The notes beneath the pieces were generated by a model. It was given only the letters and a program-made list of their open reading frames with translations, was not told where the DNA came from and searched no databases. From Minisyncoccota bacterium (GTDB taxonomy: Bacteria; Patescibacteriota; Minisyncoccia; Phycocordibacterales; PALSA-1337), in contig JBAZRX010000001.1 of NCBI GenBank assembly GCA_041662725.1, positions 85 through 64,084 of the forward strand: a stretch of 64,000 bases of DNA, written 5' to 3'. Of the stretch, positions 145-11,051 are shown piece after piece (position 1 is the first letter of the stretch; each line of letters opens with the position of its first letter). Made by a program: the position numbers and the translations under genes.

Positions 145-1059
145 TCAAAACGCAAAAGAAAAATAGCTCGTAACCTCATAGAATTGACTATGCAAAATCT
201 CGCCAGCATTGGTGTGATAGATCAAATCAAAATCGTCTATACCTTTTTTCTCCATAACCATAAGCAGTGCAATGATCGATGGTGGCGAATCTACATATGC
301 ACTATTTAAATTAATTATTTTTTCATAATCCTTAGCTCTCATAAGTTTCAGTGTGATCTCATCATTTATTTCAGCCTGACTTTTATCTTGATAATGAGAA
401 AAATCCATTGAAGCCAATATCACCGTCTTTTTATTTATTCTTGGAACAAGAGTTTCGACCATATTTTTTATTTGTTCCATTTCAAGATTTCCTGAAAGAA
501 TTATTGGAACAACTTTAGCATCAGGAATATAATATTTTATGAATGGCACAATACTTCCAATGGAATGCTCCTTATCAAGTACTTCTTCGTCAAGATAAAG
601 TATTTTCTTATCATTTAATTCTCTAACAAACTCAATATCCGGCTCAACAATCCCAAAAGGAGTTTCCCAGCCAGAAGTACTAGATAAAATCGGTTCTTCA
701 CCAAGTTCATAATGGTTAGGACCAATAAGAATTATTGTCTCTGGTTTTTGTTTCGCCAAATTTTTGAAAAAATCAGCAATAATGAAACTCGGCAACAAAT
801 GATGAGGAACTACCCCACCGATAATCGGCTTGGGGTAGTTTTTATCACTATATTTAACTTTCTCAATCGCATCTGTAAAAGTTGAAGAATCGAAGAAATA
901 AGCTTGATGGGTAGATGAGGCAATAGATTTATTAAGATTTTCTTCCTTAAACTTAACCTCTGTTGTTGGATAGACTACAAATATAAAAATAATGCAGATC
1001 AAAATACTAAATAGTATTTTATACGCGAGATGATATTTTTTTATATTTATCATATCCAT
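145..1059 (-). CDS. MEMO1-family protein (AmmeMemoRadiSam system protein B-like) with N-terminal signal/TM segment
   Basis: 304 aa. Motifs 'IIGGVVPHHLL', 'ILIGPNHYELGEEPILS', 'WETPFGIV' and 'MDFSHY' align with conserved MEMO1/UPF0103 blocks (APHAGY..., LGPSHH..., DxSH). Hydrophobic N-terminus 'ILFSILICIIFIFVV'. 3' end overlaps the start of the A2M gene by 41 nt. Confidence 0.8.
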   Translation of the reverse strand: MDMINIKKYHLAYKILFSILICIIFIFVVYPTTEVKFKEENLNKSIASSTHQAYFFDSSTFTDAIEKVKYSDKNYPKPIIGGVVPHHLLPSFIIADFFKNLAKQKPETIILIGPNHYELGEEPILSSTSGWETPFGIVEPDIEFVRELNDKKILYLDEEVLDKEHSIGSIVPFIKYYIPDAKVVPIILSGNLEMEQIKNMVETLVPRINKKTVILASMDFSHYQDKSQAEINDEITLKLMRAKDYEKIINLNSAYVDSPPSIIALLMVMEKKGIDDFDLIYHTNAGEILHSQFYEVTSYFSFAF

Positions 1060-4000
1060 GTGTTATACCAGCAATAATCAACATTAACAGAATAATATAT
1101 CCCATAACTCTATATTTTGTCTGCATATCACTTACACCTGTTTGATCTCCCTGATTAAATACCGACTTTGATTTCTGTCCCGTAATAGTAACAACATCTG
1201 TTCCTGTACGACCGTTGATCTCTGGTTCGTACATGAGACTAGCACGTGCTGGTGGAACATTGAATGTCCCCCTAGACACAACTCTCGCCTGATAAGTTAA
1301 ATCCATAGTACTATTGTGGACATAAGAGAACGATGCAATAATTCCATTTTTTGTATATTCTCTATCACCTCCCCAGTAATAATACGAGGAAGGATTGTAA
1401 GCAGAAGATGATCTTTCGTTCTCAAAACTCTTATTTATCGGGACAAGTCCTGCTGGTAGTTCATCTTCAATCACAAGATATCGACTTTCAGGAGGAATAT
1501 TCAAAACCCGAATATTAATATCAACAACATCCCCTATCCCAAAACTACTACTATAAGTTCTCGTAATATCCAGACCGTTATTTTTAGAAGCCGAATCTTT
1601 ACCAGTTCTAAATTGATCAAATACAAATGTTGAATAGATTTGATTATCATTCAATGGTTCAATACGAAGTCTTGCACCATGTGTAAGAAGGTTTGGATCA
1701 ATAGAAATTGTTTTAGTATCAAATACTCCCTGAAGTGTTCCGCTGTCTATCATTTTTTCGCCAATCAAAACTTTGTAAGATGTACTACTTCCTTTACTAT
1801 ACTTTTTAGTAAATTCAAGAAGAGCGTCTATAGTTTGTGACGTAGCAAAAGTATTATGCCAATAATCAGATTTCCTTTCAGAAACAAGATATCTAGCGGC
1901 CCCAATCGTCATTTCTTCCGATGCACCAGCCTCAAGCAAAGCTCTCAGAGCCAAAGCTGTGGAAGCTTCACGAGACCCAAAGAATTTCCAAGTTCCAGCA
2001 TTCCAATACTTCTTACCATTTTCTTCATATGCAGTTTCCTGTAGAAGATCATAGCCATTGGTACTTCGATCTGTAAAACCGTTTCGAATATTAGACAATA
2101 ACCCTAAAGCTATTATATCTGGTGTTGAAGTACCAAAGTTTTTTATTTCTTCCTTTCCAAGTGGAGAATCGAGAAGTGACAAGGTATAAATGTAGCCAAT
2201 ACGTGTTATAGGATCACTAATCTTCGGTAACTCATTTTCAAATCGTGTTTTTGTTGATTCATACAAATCTCTTGGAACAACTGCACCTATTTTCTCAGCT
2301 CTCTTCAGATATTCGATAACATAACCAGTGATAAATGGGTTAACTTCTCCATACCACCATCCCCAACCACCTCGGCCATCTTTCAGAATGGATAACCTAT
2401 CTATTCCAGTTTTCATAAAACCCTGCAAATCCTTATCGCCAATTATTTTTCTGAAGATAGATTCATTTTCTTTGATAATCACCGCCGGCACAAAACGACT
2501 CGTGGTTTGTTCCACACATCCATATGGATATTGCAACAAATAATCAATAGCTGGAGGTAAAGTACCAAACAATGAGGCTGACAGATATAGATTGGCTTTT
2601 GATGATGAAGCATTCGTATCTGGGAATCGAATCGTATCGTAAATCACATTACCCTCTCCAACAAACGAAGTCCTCTCATTAAAACCAAATTCTTGTACAG
2701 GAATCTTTACACTCACAATATCTTTTTCTTCAGGATTATTATTGGACTGTAAACTTGTTTTAACTTCAGCAATTCCAGGTTTAAGAACATTCAATTTCCA
2801 TAAAGTTTCAACGAAACTATTATTATCAATAATAAGAGATACTGTTTTATTACCAATCACACTGCCTCCCATGAAAGACAGAGCATTTTCGAATTGTTTA
2901 CTTGATCCAGTAAAGTTATGAGAGAGAGTGGATATAGTCACATCATCTCCAATTCTCAGAATATTAGGAAGGATCGGACGAACTATTACGGATTTTGTTA
3001 CAAGCAAATCAGTAGCATTTTCACCGACTTTAGTATCGTAAGTCACGGCCAAACCTTGGACTAACCAAGTAGTCAAATTGTCTGGTAATACAAATCTTAC
3101 AACGGCATTACCATTTGCATCTGTTTGTATTTGAGGATTCCAATATGCTACATCAGCGAAACTATCCCTTACACTTCCCCCATCACCTTTTTGGTTGTGA
3201 ACATATATGTTACCAGCAAAATATGTTGCCTTGTTTTCTACTGTGAGATTATAAACCGCTGTTTTACCAGCTTGCCACTCGATTGAATTTACTTTTACTT
3301 CTTTGTTATTTTTATCAATCAATAAATCACCAATCTGGATATTCCCCACATCTTTCCAGCTATTATTAACCCACACACGATGCTCTGGAGTAACTTTTAT
3401 ATTGCCATTCAATATCAAATAACCATCCGTAATTATTGAATGAACTTTTTTTACAGTAGCTTTTACTAATGTTGGATCAATTTCACTCCTTCTGGTCAAA
3501 ACCTGATCGCCAACTTTAATATCTTTTATCTGTTTTAGACCATTTGGTGTAAGTATCAAAGTTTCTCCAACAAAACATCCTTTTTCAGCTCCGCCACTTG
3601 ATGTAATCCCTTCAAATGAATTTTTATAGCTTGTAGAATTATATCTCTTACCCCAAAACACATCTATAATTTTGGCCCTCTGTTCGCTTATAAGCTCATA
3701 GAGTGATTTATCAACAGCCCATACAGCAACTTCAGAAGAGATTGGCAAACCGGAAGAATCAGTAGTTTTTATCCGAAGCTCCACAGTTTCTCCTGGAGCA
3801 TACTTTTTAGCACCTGGAATAATAGATACATTTATTTCTTTACTACTCTTACTGAGAGTTACTGCTTTTGATGAGGAATTGAATAAATGATTTCCTTTAG
3901 TTGTAAAAGTAGAGGCAGATACAAAAACATTTGGCAGATCAGTATTGAATGTAGGGACATAGATTGTACTTGTATATCCAGGAACTGATGTTACAAAATA

Positions 4001-6004
4001 TCTTCTGACCCTATCACGTTCAATAGTTATTAAGACATCCTTATTAGGATCTCCTAGAGAGATGTTTACAGGAACATTCTCGCCAGGAGAAAATTCTCTA
4101 TCCTGTGCTTTCAACGTAACAACTCCAGAACTGTTCTCGGTGTAATAAGGCACATTCTCTTTTGTAATCCATAAAGATAATTTCTTTTCATAAATATTAC
4201 CTTGTCGATCAGAAACTTTAAGATACAAACTATGACTACCTGTTTTCTGAGGAACGTACACTACTACCGCTTCACCTTTGTCATTTGTAGTAACAGAAAA
4301 GTTTGGTAGGTTTTCCTCAACAAAATGATAATTATAATAACCTTGTGAATTTAAAAGATTTTTATCATCTCTTAACCACTCTCCACGAATTGGAAACACA
4401 GAAATATTTACATTAGAAACTGGAGCATCAGAGTGAGATAGAAGCGTTAGTGGTATTGATATTGATTGCTCAGCTTTTGCATAATATTCGTAGTTACCAG
4501 CACGGATACTATATTCATTTCCTCGTAGCAAAATATTTTTACTAGCTCTAACAGGATTACCACTCTGATCTTGATAACTCGCTTCCACAGAAATAATAGA
4601 AAAGGCATCTCTAGGAAGCATATACGTACCAAAAACAATTTCAGCTTCACCTTTATCATTCAATTCAATCTCTTCATTTTTGATTTCATTTTTTCCGTAA
4701 TAATACCCGCTATAACCATATTTTTTGTAATATTCTAAATTCTCCTCTGTGTAATATTGATTCGCAGAATATTTGACTGAATATTTAACTTTTCCACCAG
4801 AGATTGCTTGACCAGAAAAATACTTACCAGAAAAATGAAGTGAGACGTTTTCTCCTTGTAAAAATTCATCTTTTTCTACATTAATGTCTAAATTATATTC
4901 AGGTTTTCGATAATATTCGACATTAAAATCTGTAACTGTACGTAAATACCATTCCCTATCAGATGTTTCGCCTATATTTACTGATATTTGGTAGGTTCCA
5001 GGACGTGCAGTATTTTCAAGACTGTATTCACCAGATATTGTCCCATTAGCAGAAATTGGATATTTCTTCTCAAATAACAGATTCGTCGAATTGTAATCCT
5101 TATACACCTTTACTGTAACCAATCCAGTAGGAATACTATACTCCGCATTGTCATCATTTCGAATAATTGCTTTAAAATAAACTTTATCACCGGGAGTATA
5201 GAGAGGTCGATCTGTAAAAAGTAAGTACTTTGTATTTACCTTGGAAGTACTGAAGTTTTGGTAATTATAATAATCACTCGGTAGATTCAATATTATCAAC
5301 GTCTGACCTTCTGATGAATTTACAAACCCAACATCGGCATTTACTGATTGTAATGTTTTTGCAATCCCGTCTGAATCTATTGGCGAACTAGAAAGATAAG
5401 TAGGTTTATCTTTGAGACTAAATATTTCAATGCTTCCAGAATTAACTTTTTTCCCTGTAACTATGTTTTGAGTCCATAAAATAATTTCCTTATTACCTTC
5501 TCTGGCCATAGTACCGATCGATGTACGTACCACAGCTGAAAATGTTTGTTCACCATCTGAACTGTATGCCCGCAAAAGCCAAAAACCAACTCCTTCTATC
5601 GGTAACAATGTTTTTTCTCCTATCCCCTTAGTATCAATTGTCACAATTTTTTTCAACTTAGAAACATCCGGAACATTCGCTATGTACTTTTCACTATTAT
5701 CAACCTTATATGTCAAAAAATTCAAAAATTCATCTTTTGAAAAATTATAAACATCTATTTTTACATCTCGTTTAACATCATCATAAGCAGAAATCTTTAT
5801 TGATGGCTCTTGATGTGTCCCCCATACAATCAATCTGCGACTTGAATATTGACCTTCAACAGCATCAACAATACCAATTTTTCTATAAGTATTATCTGCT
5901 GAAACATAATGACTAGAATTTAACAACACCACTATTGCAGTTGTAATCAATAAAACCACCGCAATAACTTTTGAAAGTCTATTCAAATTCACATTTTTGG
6001 GCAT
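1019..6004 (-). CDS. alpha-2-macroglobulin family protein (thioester-containing), membrane-anchored, with internal Hint/BIL domain
   Basis: 1661 aa. N-terminal hydrophobic anchor. 'YPYGCVEQTT' thioester CxEQ motif. 'VLPDNLTTW' A2M-domain motif. Size matches bacterial A2M (ECAM/YfhM, ~1650 aa). Repeated Ig-like beta-rich segments. Confidence 0.85.
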   Translation of the reverse strand: MPKNVNLNRLSKVIAVVLLITTAIVVLLNSSHYVSADNTYRKIGIVDAVEGQYSSRRLIVWGTHQEPSIKISAYDDVKRDVKIDVYNFSKDEFLNFLTYKVDNSEKYIANVPDVSKLKKIVTIDTKGIGEKTLLPIEGVGFWLLRAYSSDGEQTFSAVVRTSIGTMAREGNKEIILWTQNIVTGKKVNSGSIEIFSLKDKPTYLSSSPIDSDGIAKTLQSVNADVGFVNSSEGQTLIILNLPSDYYNYQNFSTSKVNTKYLLFTDRPLYTPGDKVYFKAIIRNDDNAEYSIPTGLVTVKVYKDYNSTNLLFEKKYPISANGTISGEYSLENTARPGTYQISVNIGETSDREWYLRTVTDFNVEYYRKPEYNLDINVEKDEFLQGENVSLHFSGKYFSGQAISGGKVKYSVKYSANQYYTEENLEYYKKYGYSGYYYGKNEIKNEEIELNDKGEAEIVFGTYMLPRDAFSIISVEASYQDQSGNPVRASKNILLRGNEYSIRAGNYEYYAKAEQSISIPLTLLSHSDAPVSNVNISVFPIRGEWLRDDKNLLNSQGYYNYHFVEENLPNFSVTTNDKGEAVVVYVPQKTGSHSLYLKVSDRQGNIYEKKLSLWITKENVPYYTENSSGVVTLKAQDREFSPGENVPVNISLGDPNKDVLITIERDRVRRYFVTSVPGYTSTIYVPTFNTDLPNVFVSASTFTTKGNHLFNSSSKAVTLSKSSKEINVSIIPGAKKYAPGETVELRIKTTDSSGLPISSEVAVWAVDKSLYELISEQRAKIIDVFWGKRYNSTSYKNSFEGITSSGGAEKGCFVGETLILTPNGLKQIKDIKVGDQVLTRRSEIDPTLVKATVKKVHSIITDGYLILNGNIKVTPEHRVWVNNSWKDVGNIQIGDLLIDKNNKEVKVNSIEWQAGKTAVYNLTVENKATYFAGNIYVHNQKGDGGSVRDSFADVAYWNPQIQTDANGNAVVRFVLPDNLTTWLVQGLAVTYDTKVGENATDLLVTKSVIVRPILPNILRIGDDVTISTLSHNFTGSSKQFENALSFMGGSVIGNKTVSLIIDNNSFVETLWKLNVLKPGIAEVKTSLQSNNNPEEKDIVSVKIPVQEFGFNERTSFVGEGNVIYDTIRFPDTNASSSKANLYLSASLFGTLPPAIDYLLQYPYGCVEQTTSRFVPAVIIKENESIFRKIIGDKDLQGFMKTGIDRLSILKDGRGGWGWWYGEVNPFITGYVIEYLKRAEKIGAVVPRDLYESTKTRFENELPKISDPITRIGYIYTLSLLDSPLGKEEIKNFGTSTPDIIALGLLSNIRNGFTDRSTNGYDLLQETAYEENGKKYWNAGTWKFFGSREASTALALRALLEAGASEEMTIGAARYLVSERKSDYWHNTFATSQTIDALLEFTKKYSKGSSTSYKVLIGEKMIDSGTLQGVFDTKTISIDPNLLTHGARLRIEPLNDNQIYSTFVFDQFRTGKDSASKNNGLDITRTYSSSFGIGDVVDINIRVLNIPPESRYLVIEDELPAGLVPINKSFENERSSSAYNPSSYYYWGGDREYTKNGIIASFSYVHNSTMDLTYQARVVSRGTFNVPPARASLMYEPEINGRTGTDVVTITGQKSKSVFNQGDQTGVSDMQTKYRVMGYIILLMLIIAGITHGYDKYKKISSRV
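2507..2518 (-). other. thioester motif CVEQ of A2M
   Basis: Codons for C-V-E-Q; Cys at 2516..2518 on the minus strand. Confidence 0.8.
3194..3577 (-). other. Hint (intein-like / bacterial intein-like) domain embedded in the A2M ORF (residues 810-937)
   Basis: Begins 'CFVGETLILTPNGLK' (Hint block A with Cys1) and ends 'NIYVHN' (block G, terminal Asn). 128 aa with no endonuclease domain. +1 residue is Gln. Confidence 0.65.
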
Positions 6005-6094: not shown

Positions 6095-6598
6095 TTACCT
6101 CACCAACGATAAATCACCGTTAACAATTACAGGTTTCATTCCTATAATTTCTTGTTTATAAGTAAGTTCTGATGATATTGAATTTAATATGTATATTTTC
6201 TTCCTGAGATAAAAAGCAACACCAATCTCAATCAAAGTGTTACCACCAACATATCCGCTAATACCTCTTTTATCGGGATTGATAACCAAGATCCCATCAC
6301 ACCAATCAATCTTCTCGTAATGATCTCTGATAGCCCCTTCTTTGAGATCCCAGATCTTGTGTCCTATCGGAAATCCGTCAATACCGCCATTCTGTTCGAT
6401 ATATTGACCAAAATAGACTTTTTTACCACCACCAAATTCTGGCGGAACTTCTAAAGCAAGTTCAGGTATTTTCACTTCAAAACCACGTTTGACTAACTCA
6501 TCCCTAGCTTGTTCCATTTCTTTATAAAAACCAATACTGCCACAAATTGTTATTTTCATAATTTTATTTATTAGATTATCTTTAATTCTTTTAACCAA
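6095..6598 (-). CDS. nucleoside 2-deoxyribosyltransferase-like / DNPH1(Rcl)-like protein
   Basis: 167 aa. 'MKITICGS...' start like NDT-family proteins. 'YVGGNTLIEIGVAFYLRKKIYIL' matches the catalytic-Glu block (GTxxExGxAxxxGKP). True start may be the internal Met (~6559). Overlaps the NUDIX gene by 28 nt. Confidence 0.5.
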   Translation of the reverse strand: MVKRIKDNLINKIMKITICGSIGFYKEMEQARDELVKRGFEVKIPELALEVPPEFGGGKKVYFGQYIEQNGGIDGFPIGHKIWDLKEGAIRDHYEKIDWCDGILVINPDKRGISGYVGGNTLIEIGVAFYLRKKIYILNSISSELTYKQEIIGMKPVIVNGDLSLVR

Positions 6599-7038
6599 TC
6601 ATACCAGACCGGCTCCAAACCTGGCGACTCTTCCCACTCATTTTGCTTGATATCTCCACTAAGATATCTTTCGGTTTTATCTGCAAGTAATTTCAAATCA
6701 TCAGATGAATAAAATCCCGCTTGCTTCGTTTCATCTTCGCTCCTTTTTACCTCTCCGCTAGTTTCAACTTTATATATTTTCCAATAATGCCAACTACCAC
6801 CTTCCCGACGACACGGATTTTCTTTTCGACCTTCAATCAATAATTCAATATTTTTTGAATCTAATCCAACTTCTTCTTTGAGCTCACGTTCTGCGGAATG
6901 TTCAAAGGAACTATCTAGATCGAGATGACCAGCTGGAGGTGCAAAACCAAATGGCGGTCTTTTTCTTTCGATCAGCAGTAACTTCCCATCTTTCCAGACC
7001 AACATCCCGACGCTCTTGTTGTCACATTTATTTGTCAT
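6571..7038 (-). CDS. NUDIX hydrolase
   Basis: 155 aa. Nudix box 'GHLDLDSSFEHSAERELKEEVGL' (GX5EX7REUXEEXGU). Confidence 0.8.
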   Translation of the reverse strand: MTNKCDNKSVGMLVWKDGKLLLIERKRPPFGFAPPAGHLDLDSSFEHSAERELKEEVGLDSKNIELLIEGRKENPCRREGGSWHYWKIYKVETSGEVKRSEDETKQAGFYSSDDLKLLADKTERYLSGDIKQNEWEESPGLEPVWYDWLKELKII

Positions 7039-7178
7039 GTTATTTTAATTTCTTTACAAATTCTACTGGTGAAGAAATAATTTCCCTGAAAAGAATGTAA
7101 CTGCACAATAGCTGTTTTCATGATTGATAATTATACTACATCGATATAATAAATAACCCTAGACTTATGGCCTTTTTA

Positions 7179-8219
7179 TTACACAACTTTTCTTATTTTT
7201 TTTGAAGATGATTTTCTAACCTTTACACTTTCGATTGCTTTCAATGCAACTTCATCAAAATCGACATCTTGTTTGGCTTCTATCTGTTTATATTCATCAA
7301 ACTTTTTCTCTGCAATTTCCTTCATTAATTCATGAGAAATTCTACCAGCTGACTGCAAAATATCTCTCCCATTCAACTTCAAGAAACCATCCAGCTTTTC
7401 TATCCAATTTTTCATAGTCATAGGTATTCTACGACGAGCTTGTTCGGTAGCGAAAATCAGATACTGTTCAACAAGAGCGTTGAGTTGTGTTAATTCCTCA
7501 ATATTATAATAATTTTTAGCAATTATAACTTCTTCTTTTGTCGGTTTGGCTCCCCTCCAATTAGTAAGTCCTAAATTATTTTTACCACTATCAATCCTAC
7601 CAACAACAATTTCCGCCGCAGTGTTCCCTGTAACCGCATAATGTACTTTATTTTGTACTGTTTTAAAAAATAAAAGACTTTGATCATCTGTTGGATCATA
7701 ATCAACACTGGTTGCGTATATATCAGTAATCTTCCTGTAAAATCGCTTCTCAGAAGAGCGGATATCAGCAATCCTCTGTGTTAATTCTTCAAAATAATCA
7801 AATGGCAAGTCGGGATTTTTCAGGCGCTCATCATCCAGAACAAAGCCTTTGACTACATACTCACTAAGCCTAGCTGTTGCCCATTGGCGAAAAGCAGTAG
7901 CGACAGAACTTTTGACACGATAGCCTACAGAAATAATCATATCTAAATTATAGTACTCAACATCCCTAGAAACCGCTCTACTACCTTCTTTTTGAACTGT
8001 AAAGAATTTCTTTACAGTTGAATCTTCTGATAATTCTTTCTCCTCAATTACATTTTTTATATGCTGACCAATGTTTTGCTTCGTTGTTTGGAATAAGTCA
8101 GCTAAAGCATTTTGTGTCAACCACACCGTATCACCATCAAAACGAACATCGATTTTGACGTTTCCTTTTTGATCTTTATATATAACGATTTGTGAGTTGG
8201 AAGCTTTCATCCCTATCAT
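7179..8219 (-). CDS. RhuM-family (virulence-protein RhuM-like) protein
   Basis: 346 aa. 'YYNLDMIISVGYRVKS' and overall length/composition typical of Virulence_RhuM family proteins. Confidence 0.65.
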   Translation of the reverse strand: MIGMKASNSQIVIYKDQKGNVKIDVRFDGDTVWLTQNALADLFQTTKQNIGQHIKNVIEEKELSEDSTVKKFFTVQKEGSRAVSRDVEYYNLDMIISVGYRVKSSVATAFRQWATARLSEYVVKGFVLDDERLKNPDLPFDYFEELTQRIADIRSSEKRFYRKITDIYATSVDYDPTDDQSLLFFKTVQNKVHYAVTGNTAAEIVVGRIDSGKNNLGLTNWRGAKPTKEEVIIAKNYYNIEELTQLNALVEQYLIFATEQARRRIPMTMKNWIEKLDGFLKLNGRDILQSAGRISHELMKEIAEKKFDEYKQIEAKQDVDFDEVALKAIESVKVRKSSSKKIRKVV

Positions 8220-8345
8220 ATTACTCTGATTTATTTATTTTTCATCTTTACAATCTTGTCTAATCCAACTCAAATACAAAACCATTCCTACTCCAAAACC
8301 AAAGTGGTGGATGCATGTCGATAGATTGTTATCAATCCTCATATT

Positions 8346-8600
8346 TTACGACAAGTGTTTTGAAACCAACTTTGTCATTTCAAACATATTGACTACATCC
8401 TTACCTCCGAACACCTTCTTCAATGCTTCATCAGCATTAATATTGCGCTTATTCTTTGGATCCTGAAGATTCTTACCTTTAATGTATACCCAGATTTTCT
8501 TAACAACTTCCGATCTTGGCATAGGTCCAGGACCAATTACAACAGCCAAATCGGCGCTGATATTTAATGGCTTCATAAACGCAGAATTCTCTTTTGTCAT
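8346..8600 (-). CDS. SWIB/MDM2 domain protein
   Basis: 84 aa. 'PRSEVVKKIWVYIKGKNLQDPKNKR...ADEALKKVFG...MFEMTKLVSKHL' matches the SWIB fold consensus. Confidence 0.7.
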   Translation of the reverse strand: MTKENSAFMKPLNISADLAVVIGPGPMPRSEVVKKIWVYIKGKNLQDPKNKRNINADEALKKVFGGKDVVNMFEMTKLVSKHLS

Positions 8601-8867: not shown

Positions 8868-11051
8868 ATGACCATTTCTATTACCTCCCCGATCAGCGAA
8901 CGTTTCCGTATTACACCAATACAAAAAATTGCTTTGAAGCGTTTAGGGATAGAAACTATTGAAGATCTTCTCTACCACTTCCCTGTACGTTATGGCGATA
9001 CTGCTGAAGCTAAAAATATTGATTCTCTGCAAGCTGGAGATACTGCTGTAATCTTCGGTAAAATTACAGGTCTTAAAACTAGCAAGGGTTGGAAATCAAA
9101 AGTTCCTATGGCCGATGGTTATGTTGAAGATGAGACTGGTCGTATTCATTGTGTTTGGTTCAATCAACCTTATGTTGCGAAAATGTTTACAGATAACATG
9201 TTAGTAAGAATTGAAGGAAAAATTTCACAAAAAAGAATTTCTAAAGATCTGACTTCCACACCACAAACAGAGATCAAAAGAGAAATTCTATATTTCTCTA
9301 ATCCCAAGATAGAAGTAGTCAATTCACTACCTACAGGAGTTGGCGATTCCCTTTTCGGTAACGGTAATGAAGCTCATACTTTATACCCAATCTACCCAGA
9401 ATCACGCGGTATTTCTTCTACTTGGATATATCATGCTCTGCAAAAAATATTTAGAAGCGGAGTATTGGAAACATTAGAAGATCCTATCCCTGAAGATATT
9501 CTAGAAAAATACCATTTACCAGGAATAAAAACTGCTTTTATTTGGATTCACGCACCAATAAATCGTGATCATGCTCTTTCGGCACGTAAGAGATTTTCAT
9601 TTGAAGAAGTATTCGTTATTCAACTTGGTAAAAAAAGAGCTAGAAAAGAATATGAGACTTATCCTTCATTTCTCGTAGAAACAAGCAAGAAAAATGTTCA
9701 GGAATTCGTTAAACGCTTTCCATTTCAAGCTACTAACGCACAAAACCGTGCTATTGAGAATATTATTTCTGATATGAAGCGTGAATACGCCATGTCACGA
9801 TTACTTGAAGGAGATGTTGGCTCCGGTAAAACCGCCGTAGCCGCCGCTAGTGCATATGCAGTAATAGTCTCTAAATTACAAACTGCTTATATGTGCCCTA
9901 CGGAAATATTAGCTACTCAACACTTTGAATCTTTCATTAAATACTTTTCTTTTATGCCAATACAAATCGGTCTTATCACCGGTTCTGGTTGTCGTAAGTT
10001 TCCTTCTAAAGTAAATCCAAAAGGCTGGACAGATATTTCACGTGCACAATTATTGAAATGGGTCGCTAATGGAGAAATTGCTGTTCTCATCGGTACCCAC
10101 GCACTAATTCAAAAGTCTGTTGAATTCAAAAACCTTGCTTATGTAATTATTGATGAACAACATCGATTCGGCACAGCCCAAAGAGCAAAACTGGTAAAAA
10201 AGAATAATATCGCTCCTCACTTACTTTCCATGACAGCCACACCAATCCCTCGAACACTAGCTCTCACTATGTATGGAGACCTTGATCTTACTTTACTTGA
10301 TGAATCCCCGGCTGGAAGAAAACCTATTATCACAGAATTAGTTTTACCAGGTAAACGTGAAGAAGTGTACGAAAAAATTCGTAAAGAATTACAAACTGGT
10401 CGACAAATGTATGTAATCTGCCCACGCATTAATGAACCTGATCCGGAAAAAGAAGCCGCCATTATTGCCAAATCAGTCAAAGAAGAAGCTAAACGTCTGA
10501 AAAAAGAAATTTTTCCTGAATACGAAATCGGTATTCTCCACGGCAAAATGAGACCGAGTGAGAAAAATTCTGTAATGCGACAATTTAACAATGGAACAAT
10601 CAAAATACTATGCGCGACTTCAGTGGTAGAAGTAGGTGTAAATGTACCAAATGCTACTGTAATAATTATTGAGGGTGCAGAGAGATTCGGTTTAGCACAA
10701 CTTCATCAACTTCGTGGTCGTGTCATGAGAAGTACTGATCAAGCGTATTGCTATGCTTTTACAGAAACTAATTCTGCAAAATCTATAGATCGTCTTAAAG
10801 CTTTGCAGACAGCCAAGAACGGATTTGAATTAGCGGAACTTGATCTTGCTCAGCGTGGAGCAGGTCAACTGTCTGGAAATCAACAATGGGGTGTTTCTGA
10901 TATTGCTATGGAAGCCTTACAAAATTTGAAAATGGTAGAAGCGGCAAGAACAGAGGCAGTGAGACTTATCAATGAGGATCCTGCTCTTACAAAATATCCT
11001 ATATTGAATAAAAAAATTACTCTACATTCGAAAGATGCTCACTTTGAATAA
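8868..11051 (+). CDS. recG: ATP-dependent DNA helicase RecG
   Basis: 727 aa. Walker A 'GDVGSGKT', 'IIDEQHRFG' (DExH), 'QLRGRV' helicase C motif, N-terminal wedge region. Confidence 0.9.
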   Translation: MTISITSPISERFRITPIQKIALKRLGIETIEDLLYHFPVRYGDTAEAKNIDSLQAGDTAVIFGKITGLKTSKGWKSKVPMADGYVEDETGRIHCVWFNQPYVAKMFTDNMLVRIEGKISQKRISKDLTSTPQTEIKREILYFSNPKIEVVNSLPTGVGDSLFGNGNEAHTLYPIYPESRGISSTWIYHALQKIFRSGVLETLEDPIPEDILEKYHLPGIKTAFIWIHAPINRDHALSARKRFSFEEVFVIQLGKKRARKEYETYPSFLVETSKKNVQEFVKRFPFQATNAQNRAIENIISDMKREYAMSRLLEGDVGSGKTAVAAASAYAVIVSKLQTAYMCPTEILATQHFESFIKYFSFMPIQIGLITGSGCRKFPSKVNPKGWTDISRAQLLKWVANGEIAVLIGTHALIQKSVEFKNLAYVIIDEQHRFGTAQRAKLVKKNNIAPHLLSMTATPIPRTLALTMYGDLDLTLLDESPAGRKPIITELVLPGKREEVYEKIRKELQTGRQMYVICPRINEPDPEKEAAIIAKSVKEEAKRLKKEIFPEYEIGILHGKMRPSEKNSVMRQFNNGTIKILCATSVVEVGVNVPNATVIIIEGAERFGLAQLHQLRGRVMRSTDQAYCYAFTETNSAKSIDRLKALQTAKNGFELAELDLAQRGAGQLSGNQQWGVSDIAMEALQNLKMVEAARTEAVRLINEDPALTKYPILNKKITLHSKDAHFE

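Follow-up and report, generated by a model that had tools for sequence, protein, structure and literature searches.

Proteins of the alpha-2-macroglobulin (A2M) and complement type are defined by an external protease, which cuts the bait region, or the anaphylatoxin domain (ANA) in complement, to fire the trap and the thioester. It was shown that a discontinuity in the bait backbone is the necessary and sufficient trigger of A2M, that an A2M with an all-Gly/Ser bait still works, and that after bait cleavage the alpha'NT plug (R732/F735) retracts from its channel and A2M collapses (PMC9352918). In complement, a folded ANA replaces the bait, and furin cuts it on the N-side without triggering, while the cut on the C-side activates (PMC9352918). 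The bait of the E. coli A2M (ECAM, the yfhM product) is disordered, with Arg923-Leu942 unresolved after cleavage (PMC4498604). Among intein-like elements, the type-A bacterial intein-like domains (BILs) form an N-terminal thioester and are cleaved at their C-terminus by Asn cyclisation, and the amine so freed can attack the thioester and ligate the flanks without a nucleophile at position +1, although cleavage products dominate (PMC4031507). In BIL2, the thioester is resolved by a lysine epsilon-amine to give an isopeptide (PMC8616854). Here we describe a protein in which the two kinds of system meet, encoded in a 64,000-nucleotide stretch of a Minisyncoccota bacterium (contig JBAZRX010000001.1, positions 85 to 64,084; hereafter the window): an A2M whose bait position is occupied by a conserved Hint domain of the type-A BIL kind.

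The domain and its catalytic positions are located as follows.

3194..3577, minus strand: Hint domain of the type-A BIL kind, aa 810-937, 128 aa (PT-HINT profile, 2LWY match, AlphaFold2 model, Foldseek, conservation)
3575-3577, minus strand: codon of Cys1 (Cys810; sequence)
3380-3391, minus strand: block-B TPEH, aa 872-875 (sequence)
3194-3199, minus strand: terminal His936-Asn937 (sequence)

The minus-strand translation of this interval is CFVGETLILTPNG...NIYVHN (starting CFVGETLIL), 128 aa followed by Gln938, which is the Hint segment with a terminal NIYVHN at residues 810-937 that the original prediction had read from the letters. The Pfam model PT-HINT (PF07591) matches aa 816-937 over the whole profile with 39.5 bits against a gathering score of 27.7 (E 8e-10) and is the only one to pass; Hint_2, Vint, Intein_splicing and Hint match the segment below their own gathering scores. 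NCBIfam has no family for the whole 1661-aa protein, and the Hint segment drew only sub-threshold intein N-terminal and C-terminal matches there. In a phmmer search of the PDB, the best match was 2LWY, a BIL from Clostridium thermocellum (E 2.4e-10, whole domain), with which the segment has in common the block-B TxxH, the block-F VYN and the terminal HN. For aa 795-955, an AlphaFold2 (AF2) model made from an alignment of 52 sequences shows a core with pLDDT 95-98 between disordered flanks, and Foldseek placed BIL2 (6Y75/6TMM, E 1e-11) first among PDB structures, with 2LWY at a root mean square deviation of 1.7 A. The Foldseek probability was 1.00 for BIL2, for 2LWY, for the DnaB, gp41-1 and RecA mini-inteins and for Hedgehog (1AT0/6TYY), and thus the segment has the Hint fold and is not an ordinary macroglobulin (MG) or Ig domain, as anticipated.

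Several kinds of Hint protein had to be told apart. The published definition of a type-A BIL (PMC4031507) fits this domain, which has Cys1, TPEH, a C-terminal His-Asn and Gln at +1, is akin in sequence to characterised BILs, and lacks an endonuclease, for which 128 aa leaves no room; the BIL-like kind and the missing endonuclease, both claimed beforehand, are thereby borne out. A canonical intein would have Cys, Ser or Thr at +1 and a conserved functional site in its host. Here +1 is Gln938, the residue is non-nucleophilic in about 97% of the relatives, and the site is a variable bait loop, although Hint-less relatives are contiguous at the exact insertion point; with a non-nucleophilic +1, intein-type splicing is unlikely, as had been argued from the Gln. 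Nor does the domain stand just upstream of a C-terminal toxin as pretoxin-HINT domains do, since MG7, CUB, the thioester domain (TED) and MG10 follow instead. No second Hint was found elsewhere in the 64-kb window. We consider it highly probable that a conserved type-A BIL, with a predicted intact catalytic apparatus, occupies the bait site.

Its place in the bait loop is defined by three flanking features.

3578..3616, minus strand: N-side linker FEGITSSGGAEKG, aa 797-809, ending in Gly-1 (AF2 pLDDT <50 for aa 794-808)
3173..3193, minus strand: C-side linker QKGDGGS, aa 938-944, with Gln938 at +1, Lys939 at +2 (codon 3188-3190) and Gly at +3 (AF2 pLDDT <50 for aa 939-943)
3134..3172, minus strand: post-bait segment VRDSFADVAYWNP, aa 945-957, with Arg946/Phe949 as R-x-x-F (alignments A3 and A4)

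The Hint domain lies between the A2M_BRD and A2M Pfam domains, and in an AF2 model of aa 462-1661 it is a confident domain between the two low-confidence, Gly-rich linkers. A weak sequence alignment puts aa 794 opposite residue ~925 of the Salmonella A2M (SaA2M). The R-x-x-F motif begins 8 residues past Hint, and in the family alignments A3 and A4 its Arg is invariant and its Phe nearly so. The plug residues R732/F735 of human A2M have the same R-x-x-F spacing (PMC9352918), and from spacing and position we infer that R946/F949 are their equivalent. The original prediction had the insert directly before VRDSFADVAYWNP; the conserved post-bait segment does follow, but 7 residues (QKGDGGS) intervene. 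At the Hint position, the insert-free A2M homologues P0005 and P0006 have a long, low-complexity bait rich in Ala, Pro and Gln, and closer Hint-less relatives a short Gly loop, in agreement with an insertion in the bait region. With Hint taken out, only about 16 mostly Gly linker residues remain in the loop, a stretch that would be a poor substrate for most proteases; the loop has no other evident bait. The bait position just ahead of the plug is thus taken by Hint. Of the two arrangements envisaged earlier, Hint replacing the bait or abutting it, the former is in effect the case, because nothing but these linker residues is left.

The host protein is encoded on the minus strand by the open reading frame (ORF) 1019..6004 (1661 aa and a stop), an ORF that the original prediction gave correctly though with no strand; on the plus strand, which does not code here, the translation of 3194-3577 is riddled with stops. 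The protein is 100% identical to a public entry (P0015), 'MAG: alpha-2-macroglobulin family protein [Candidatus Paceibacterota bacterium]'. Besides PT-HINT 816-937, a Pfam scan of the whole protein returned MG2 261-348, A2M_BRD 630-771, A2M 953-1037, TED 1150-1250 and bMG10 1481-1595 (aa), all above threshold. The AF2 model of aa 462-1661 (1200 residues, pLDDT 86.5) has its closest folds in native SaA2M (4U48) and ECAM (5A42), with Foldseek E ~1e-44, and it fits protease-activated A2M forms less well than native ones. Profiles and fold therefore both give the MG architecture of the A2M superfamily, with a bait-region domain and a C-terminal MG domain, and the proposed family membership holds. 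So do the three landmarks named for it, GCVEQ, LPDNLTTW and the N-terminal hydrophobic segment, to which a C-terminal helix of transmembrane (TM) type can be added.

5912..5971, minus strand: N-terminal hydrophobic segment, aa 12-31, predicted signal peptide or membrane anchor (sequence, hydropathy)
3692..4117, minus strand: A2M_BRD bait-region domain, aa 630-771, upstream of Hint (Pfam E 1.2e-10, 42.3 bits against a cut-off of 22.7)
2894..3148, minus strand: A2M domain (PF00207), aa 953-1037, downstream of Hint (Pfam E 1.2e-14)
3065-3088, minus strand: LPDNLTTW, aa 973-980, inside the A2M domain (motif position)
2507..2521, minus strand: thioester motif GCVEQ, aa 1162-1166, in TED (sequence and TED profile match; thioester formation predicted)
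1055..1123, minus strand: TM-like helix near the C-terminus, inside aa 1628-1650, with a basic tail after it (hydropathy; long terminal helix in the AF2 model)

Hydrophobic segments at both the N- and the C-terminus were found by hydropathy in 108 of 161 Hint-bearing homologues, and the two hydrophobic ends suggest a surface-anchored ectodomain. The 1661-aa protein has only two cysteines, Cys810 (Hint Cys1) and Cys1163 of the CxEQ thioester; exactly two are likewise present in 81 of ~164 full-length Hint-bearing relatives, and 11 thioester-less ones have the Hint Cys alone. A redox (disulfide) switch inside Hint was considered and rejected, because Cys1 is the sole Cys of the domain.

The original prediction had proposed looking for the insertion in related genomes of the candidate phyla radiation (CPR); it is found widely at the same site and is a conserved clade trait, not a one-off. 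The same-site Hint is present in ~50 full-length homologues of 33-72% identity; when 1.84 billion cluster representatives were searched exhaustively, flank, Hint and flank were matched in one stretch by ~145 of the 150 top-ranking sequences. A scan of GTDB species representatives, one genome per species, with the alignment A4 (narrower than the broad A3), confirmed 93 Hint-A2M loci, and among the 80 of these that were listed are Microgenomates-type and Parcubacteria-type lineages, WWE3 and Saccharibacteria. One locus with the architecture, L019, is a complete chromosome of Saccharibacteria. Altogether we collected ~185 Hint-bearing A2M sequences; junction statistics were taken on 174 of them and on the 77 GTDB loci recovered by the junction pattern G-C[FL]...[VA]HN. 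A large A2M clade, mostly of Patescibacteria, has therefore conserved Hint in the bait, and this has gone unremarked in public databases. Many of the metagenome-assembled genomes with a Hint-A2M (L007, L009-L013, L037, L054, L057, L077 and others) bear non-CPR titles, namely Gammaproteobacteria, Pseudomonadales, Bdellovibrionales, Limisphaerales, Limnocylindrales, Methanoperedens and Bathyarchaeia, which may be placeholder or mis-binned names, or may reflect a real spread beyond CPR.

The junction chemistry is conserved to the same extent. Cys1 is present in 171 of 174 homologues (the three exceptions are alignment or boundary offsets), TxxH in 173 and His-Asn in all 174. On the N-side, Gly-1 was found in 171/174 (the three exceptions look like off-by-one boundaries) and in 77/77 GTDB loci. 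On the C-side, +1 is Q in 75, D in 53, E in 18 and G in 16 of the 174 (Q/D/E/G 162/174) and Ser in only 5, with a similar spectrum in the GTDB loci (Q42, D17, E9, G4, N4, S1), while Lys+2 is present in 169/174 and 77/77 and Gly+3 in 156/174. The Hint domain has a mean identity of 44% as compared to 32% for the host and is the better conserved of the two in 96% of pairs, and its catalytic positions are kept across ~56% Hint sequence divergence; this points to selection on catalysis. Host distances and Hint distances are correlated (Mantel r 0.33, 0/500 permutations), as would fit a mostly vertical descent, and ~85% of the close Patescibacteria homologues retain the domain. Its GC content is 0.328 and that of the remaining gene 0.349, with 0.25 and 0.23 at third codon positions (GC3); base composition thus gave no signal of a recent horizontal acquisition. 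These data establish what the Hint domain is, where it sits, its fold, how well it is conserved and how widely it is distributed.

A 7-nt direct repeat, AAAAAGG, flanks the window Hint (3173-3193 and 3578-3586, minus strand), reading E-K-G before Cys1 and Q-K-G after the Asn. A target-site duplication or microhomology flank was rejected: over the 77 loci, the longest word shared by the junctions averages 4.69 nt, against 4.56 +/- 0.12 in permuted pairs, and is not enriched. Therefore, the repeat is probably a by-product of Lys/Gly codon composition.

Eight close Patescibacteria relatives (P0050, P0051, P0053, P0060, P0062, P0064, P0067 and P0068; 1537-1578 aa), aligned to window aa ~795-945, lack precisely the segment 'C...HN-x-K', as in AERGGG-GGGEVRSVFKD. 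Their bait loop is almost pure glycine, for example AERGGGGGGEVR, and should resist most proteases; from SLEGI to the plug Arg it counts 14-16 residues, compared to a median of 16 in Hint-bearing loops minus Hint. All eight keep CxEQ. Lys+2 is absent in all eight, and therefore its constraint is tied to Hint. In a neighbour-joining tree of the host sequence with Hint taken out, the Hint-less forms fall at five separate places within the Hint-bearing clade (parsimony 6 changes, 5 of them inside the clade, 50/50 bootstraps), a nesting that points to repeated loss.

The coupling between Hint and thioester can be judged from the converse case. CxEQ is missing from 25 of ~177 Hint-bearing proteins, and a separate 21-sequence Hint-bearing A2M clade lacks any CxEQ while Cys1, TxxH and HN are intact (P0117, P0195, P0215, P0219, P0223, P0225, P0237, P0254-P0257, P0260-P0262, P0265-P0267, P0269-P0271 and P0273); hence, Hint is not strictly coupled to the TED thioester. 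The domain also occurs in a clade of 2200-aa A2Ms, nested among Hint-less Chloroflexi-labelled A2Ms.

The window Hint subfamily is also found outside A2Ms. P0268 (1132 aa) carries head-to-tail Hint arrays with K-G(-G-G) linkers (HN|KG|CF, HN|KGG|CF), and P0259 (3399 aa) contains three copies. A Lys no more than two residues from the C-terminal junction appears to belong to the Hint module itself. In two small proteins, P0007 (414 aa) and P0008 (374 aa), a Hint ~45% identical to that of the window, with the junction HN|KC, comes after a Gly/Thr-rich repetitive N-terminal region.

Based on the analogy with ANA and type-A BILs, the reading that we favour, with a probability of roughly 45%, is that Hint replaced the bait and acts as a built-in, protease-independent maturation or trigger module that cuts the loop from within. 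After export and folding, Cys810 would undergo an N-S acyl shift that turns the Gly809-Cys810 bond into a thioester, aided by Thr872 and His875 of block B, and Asn937 would cyclise with the help of His936, severing the Asn937-Gln938 bond. Because +1 is Gln, intein-type transesterification would not take place, and the bait-loop backbone would be broken from within, 8 residues ahead of the R-x-x-F plug. Such a break might allow the plug to withdraw and the fold to collapse, so that the CxEQ thioester is exposed. The self-triggered thioester trap suggested by the original prediction would thus agree with the domain order seen here and with what is published on the A2M trigger. Hint itself would make both cuts at the ANA position, a 'furin-like' one on the N-side and a 'convertase-like' one on the C-side, and the latter would release the plug much as a convertase does. 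We infer the activity of Hint, the predominance of cleavage over ligation and the change in the A2M upon cleavage from the chemistry of the characterised BILs and A2Ms.

The main rival to a self-cleaving trigger is a self-ligating passenger: an endonuclease-free Hint that sits in a permissive loop, excises itself and rejoins its flanks by the type-A BIL route. Asn cyclisation would free the alpha-amine of +1, which would attack the Gly-Cys thioester, or the epsilon-amine of Lys+2 would do so and close the loop through an isopeptide; the mature protein would be an ordinary A2M with a short, continuous Gly-rich bait, and Hint would persist because its precise deletion is rare. We regard this as possible but less likely. 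Ligation without a +1 nucleophile is known in type-A BILs (PMC4031507), and BIL2, the best fold match, resolves its thioester via a lysine epsilon-amine (PMC8616854), yet in the type-A BILs studied cleavage outweighs ligation (PMC4031507). The chemistry of both junctions is strictly conserved, including Gly-1, which gives the least hindered thioester, and a Lys+2 that is missing in 8/8 Hint-less relatives. The Hint-less forms at five places (50/50 bootstraps), with CxEQ kept and loops of 14-16 residues against a median of 16, resemble the predicted ligation product, and the occurrence of Hint in several A2M clades, thioester-less ones included, and of its subfamily as tandem arrays in unrelated proteins, would suit a passenger. 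However, a homing endonuclease is absent, the composition (GC 0.328 against 0.349) bears no sign of recent transfer, typical inteins do not sit, as Hint does here, in the least conserved loop of a dispensable surface protein, and the Mantel r of 0.33 and ~85% retention argue for a domesticated part rather than a parasite. Some of the same observations weigh against the trigger module that we prefer. The activity of Hint is a prediction, and sequence order is the basis for its putative ANA-like placement and for the putative threading of the plug. Near-invariant Lys+2 and invariant Gly-1 would suit ligation chemistry (PMC8616854). Eight Hint-less relatives keep CxEQ and a continuous loop of the length predicted for a ligation product, so that a continuous short loop is compatible with function, and 25 of ~177 Hint-bearing proteins are without CxEQ, so Hint is not tied to the thioester. 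In addition, a protease trap that sprang itself constitutively would be of little use as an inhibitor, and the trigger reading therefore needs a conditional trigger, or else a C3-like role in tagging or adhesion.

Two further explanations concern the fate of the thioester and the reality of the domain. By analogy with BUBL/BIL2 or Hedgehog, an external amine or hydroxyl might resolve the Gly809-Cys810 thioester, so that the domain would be a 'second warhead' that bonds the MG1-MG6 fragment, via its C-terminal Gly, to a protease lysine, the cell's own wall or a host-cell surface, supplementing the CxEQ thioester or replacing it in thioester-less members. BIL2 does transfer its N-flank to lysines of other proteins (PMC8616854), the Gly-rich C-terminus of the N-flank resembles ubiquitin-type Gly-Gly donors, 25 CxEQ-less members keep a fully intact Hint, and most members have predicted membrane anchors at both ends. 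Since this is pure analogy with a purely hypothetical acceptor, and since it would leave the strict conservation of His-Asn and Lys+2 unexplained, unless Lys+2 is an intramolecular acceptor as in the self-ligating case, we consider it improbable. Far less credible still is an inert domain, either a decayed Hint relic serving as bulky bait or spacer or a chimera of assembly or gene calling. Nothing specific speaks for it, other than the sub-threshold scores of the Hint_2, Vint, Intein_splicing and Hint models, while PT-HINT is above threshold with a confident fold match, the catalytic positions are invariant over ~56% divergence, and ~185 sequences from independent assemblies, as well as 77-93 GTDB species genomes, have the same architecture. 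A chimera is rejected because the architecture recurs in independent assemblies, and the inert reading as a whole is effectively refuted by conservation.

If Hint is a self-cleaving trigger module, then the role in tagging or adhesion leads to a bolder version, which we deem unlikely: the family might be protease-independent, self-arming thioester proteins in which Hint is an internal 'convertase' with a clock or environmental switch, analogous to C3 tick-over. Excision of Hint would free the plug, and the anchored protein would fire CxEQ, and possibly the Gly thioester too, at an adjacent surface, by which an episymbiont could tag or covalently tether its host cell. In a variant, Lys+2 would close the bait loop via a Gly-epsilon-Lys isopeptide.

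No description of a Hint or intein domain in an A2M bait loop was found in the searchable literature, in line with the earlier impression that the architecture is unfamiliar in A2Ms, although the sequences and precomputed Pfam matches are public. The A2M and BIL parts are known; their combination at the trigger loop appears to be undescribed. A conserved, predicted self-cleaving Hint at the trigger point in ~185 proteins of many CPR lineages suggests that the thioester may be armed without a protease and, if true, would be a bacterial parallel to the C3 plan, with a folded domain just ahead of the plug. Intein and BIL biology gains a large natural series with one BIL at one site in an extracytoplasmic host, in which the conserved Gly-1/Lys+2 flanks point to a specific chemistry and natural Hint-less revertants are available as controls. 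For CPR biology, this is a widespread, large surface protein, predicted to be doubly anchored, that may mediate host-cell interaction. The architecture would surprise A2M, complement and intein specialists, though its function is a proposal.

The gene neighbourhood of the window A2M gene includes one recurrent partner.

145..1059, minus strand: Memo-like gene (PF01875) just downstream, overlapping the 3' end of the A2M gene by 41 nt; encodes an N-terminal TM helix (Pfam Memo E 3e-33)

Among the three homologous loci compared, the A2M-Memo pairing recurs at L003 (11165-12070; Hint-bearing P0027) and L004 (10792-11625; Hint-less P0062), and the Memo-like partner is absent at L002 (P0043). No PBP1c/pbpC-like gene adjoins the window A2M gene, whereas pbpC neighbours yfhM in E. 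coli. Upstream (6095..8600, minus strand, and 8868..11051, plus strand) are a 167-aa ORF with no Pfam match, a NUDIX hydrolase and a RhuM-family protein, and also two further ORFs, one of 84 aa and a helicase-like one of 727 aa on the opposite strand; none of these has an obvious link to A2M function. At a further locus (L001, 7001-10717, on a 311-kb contig of Candidatus Amesbacteria), the homologue P0001 is split into short called genes, as are its neighbours, which suggests indel errors of long-read assembly and not a pseudogene.

Of the known systems, type-A BILs (2LWY, PF07591) are the closest to the window Hint, sharing the Hint fold, a length of ~130 aa, Cys1, TxxH, VYN and His-Asn, and lacking a +1 nucleophile and an endonuclease; like it, they reside at non-conserved sites of secreted bacterial proteins (PMC4031507). 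Type-A BILs are otherwise met ahead of toxin domains or in variable proteins of adhesin type, whereas the window Hint lies in an A2M bait loop, with an invariant Gly-1, a near-invariant Lys+2 and a single site across the whole host clade. BIL2 (BUBL of Tetrahymena thermophila, 6Y75/6TMM) is the best structural match (Foldseek E 1e-11, TM-score ~0.76-0.8). Both have a Gly-rich N-flank that ends at the thioester-forming Cys, and as the acceptor in BIL2 is a lysine (PMC8616854), Lys+2 could, by analogy, be such an acceptor in the window family. BIL2 is, however, eukaryotic and flanked by ubiquitin-like domains, of which there are none here, and its identity to the window Hint is ~23%. The mini-inteins (DnaB, gp41-1, RecA) agree with Hint in fold and in N- and C-terminal catalytic residues, but Hint lacks +1 Cys/Ser/Thr (Ser in 5/174), and its host is extracytoplasmic and offers no replication or repair catalytic site.

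On the host side, ECAM/YfhM and SaA2M (type I) resemble the window protein in the MG chain, bait-region domain, CxEQ TED, MG10 and envelope anchoring (predicted for the window protein), at an identity of 15-16% in the Foldseek structural alignment. In contrast to ECAM, with its disordered bait and its lipoprotein anchor at the N-terminus, the window protein has a folded Hint with ~16 Gly-rich residues and a C-terminal TM helix, and its neighbour is Memo-like. The complement proteins C3, C4 and C5 also carry a folded domain directly N-terminal to the alpha'NT plug, and ANA is cut on its N-side at maturation and on its C-side for activation (PMC9352918); Hint has the chemistry for both cuts. ANA is helical and is cut by furin and convertases, whereas Hint has a beta-fold and would do its own cutting; the two correspond in sequence order and not by superposition.

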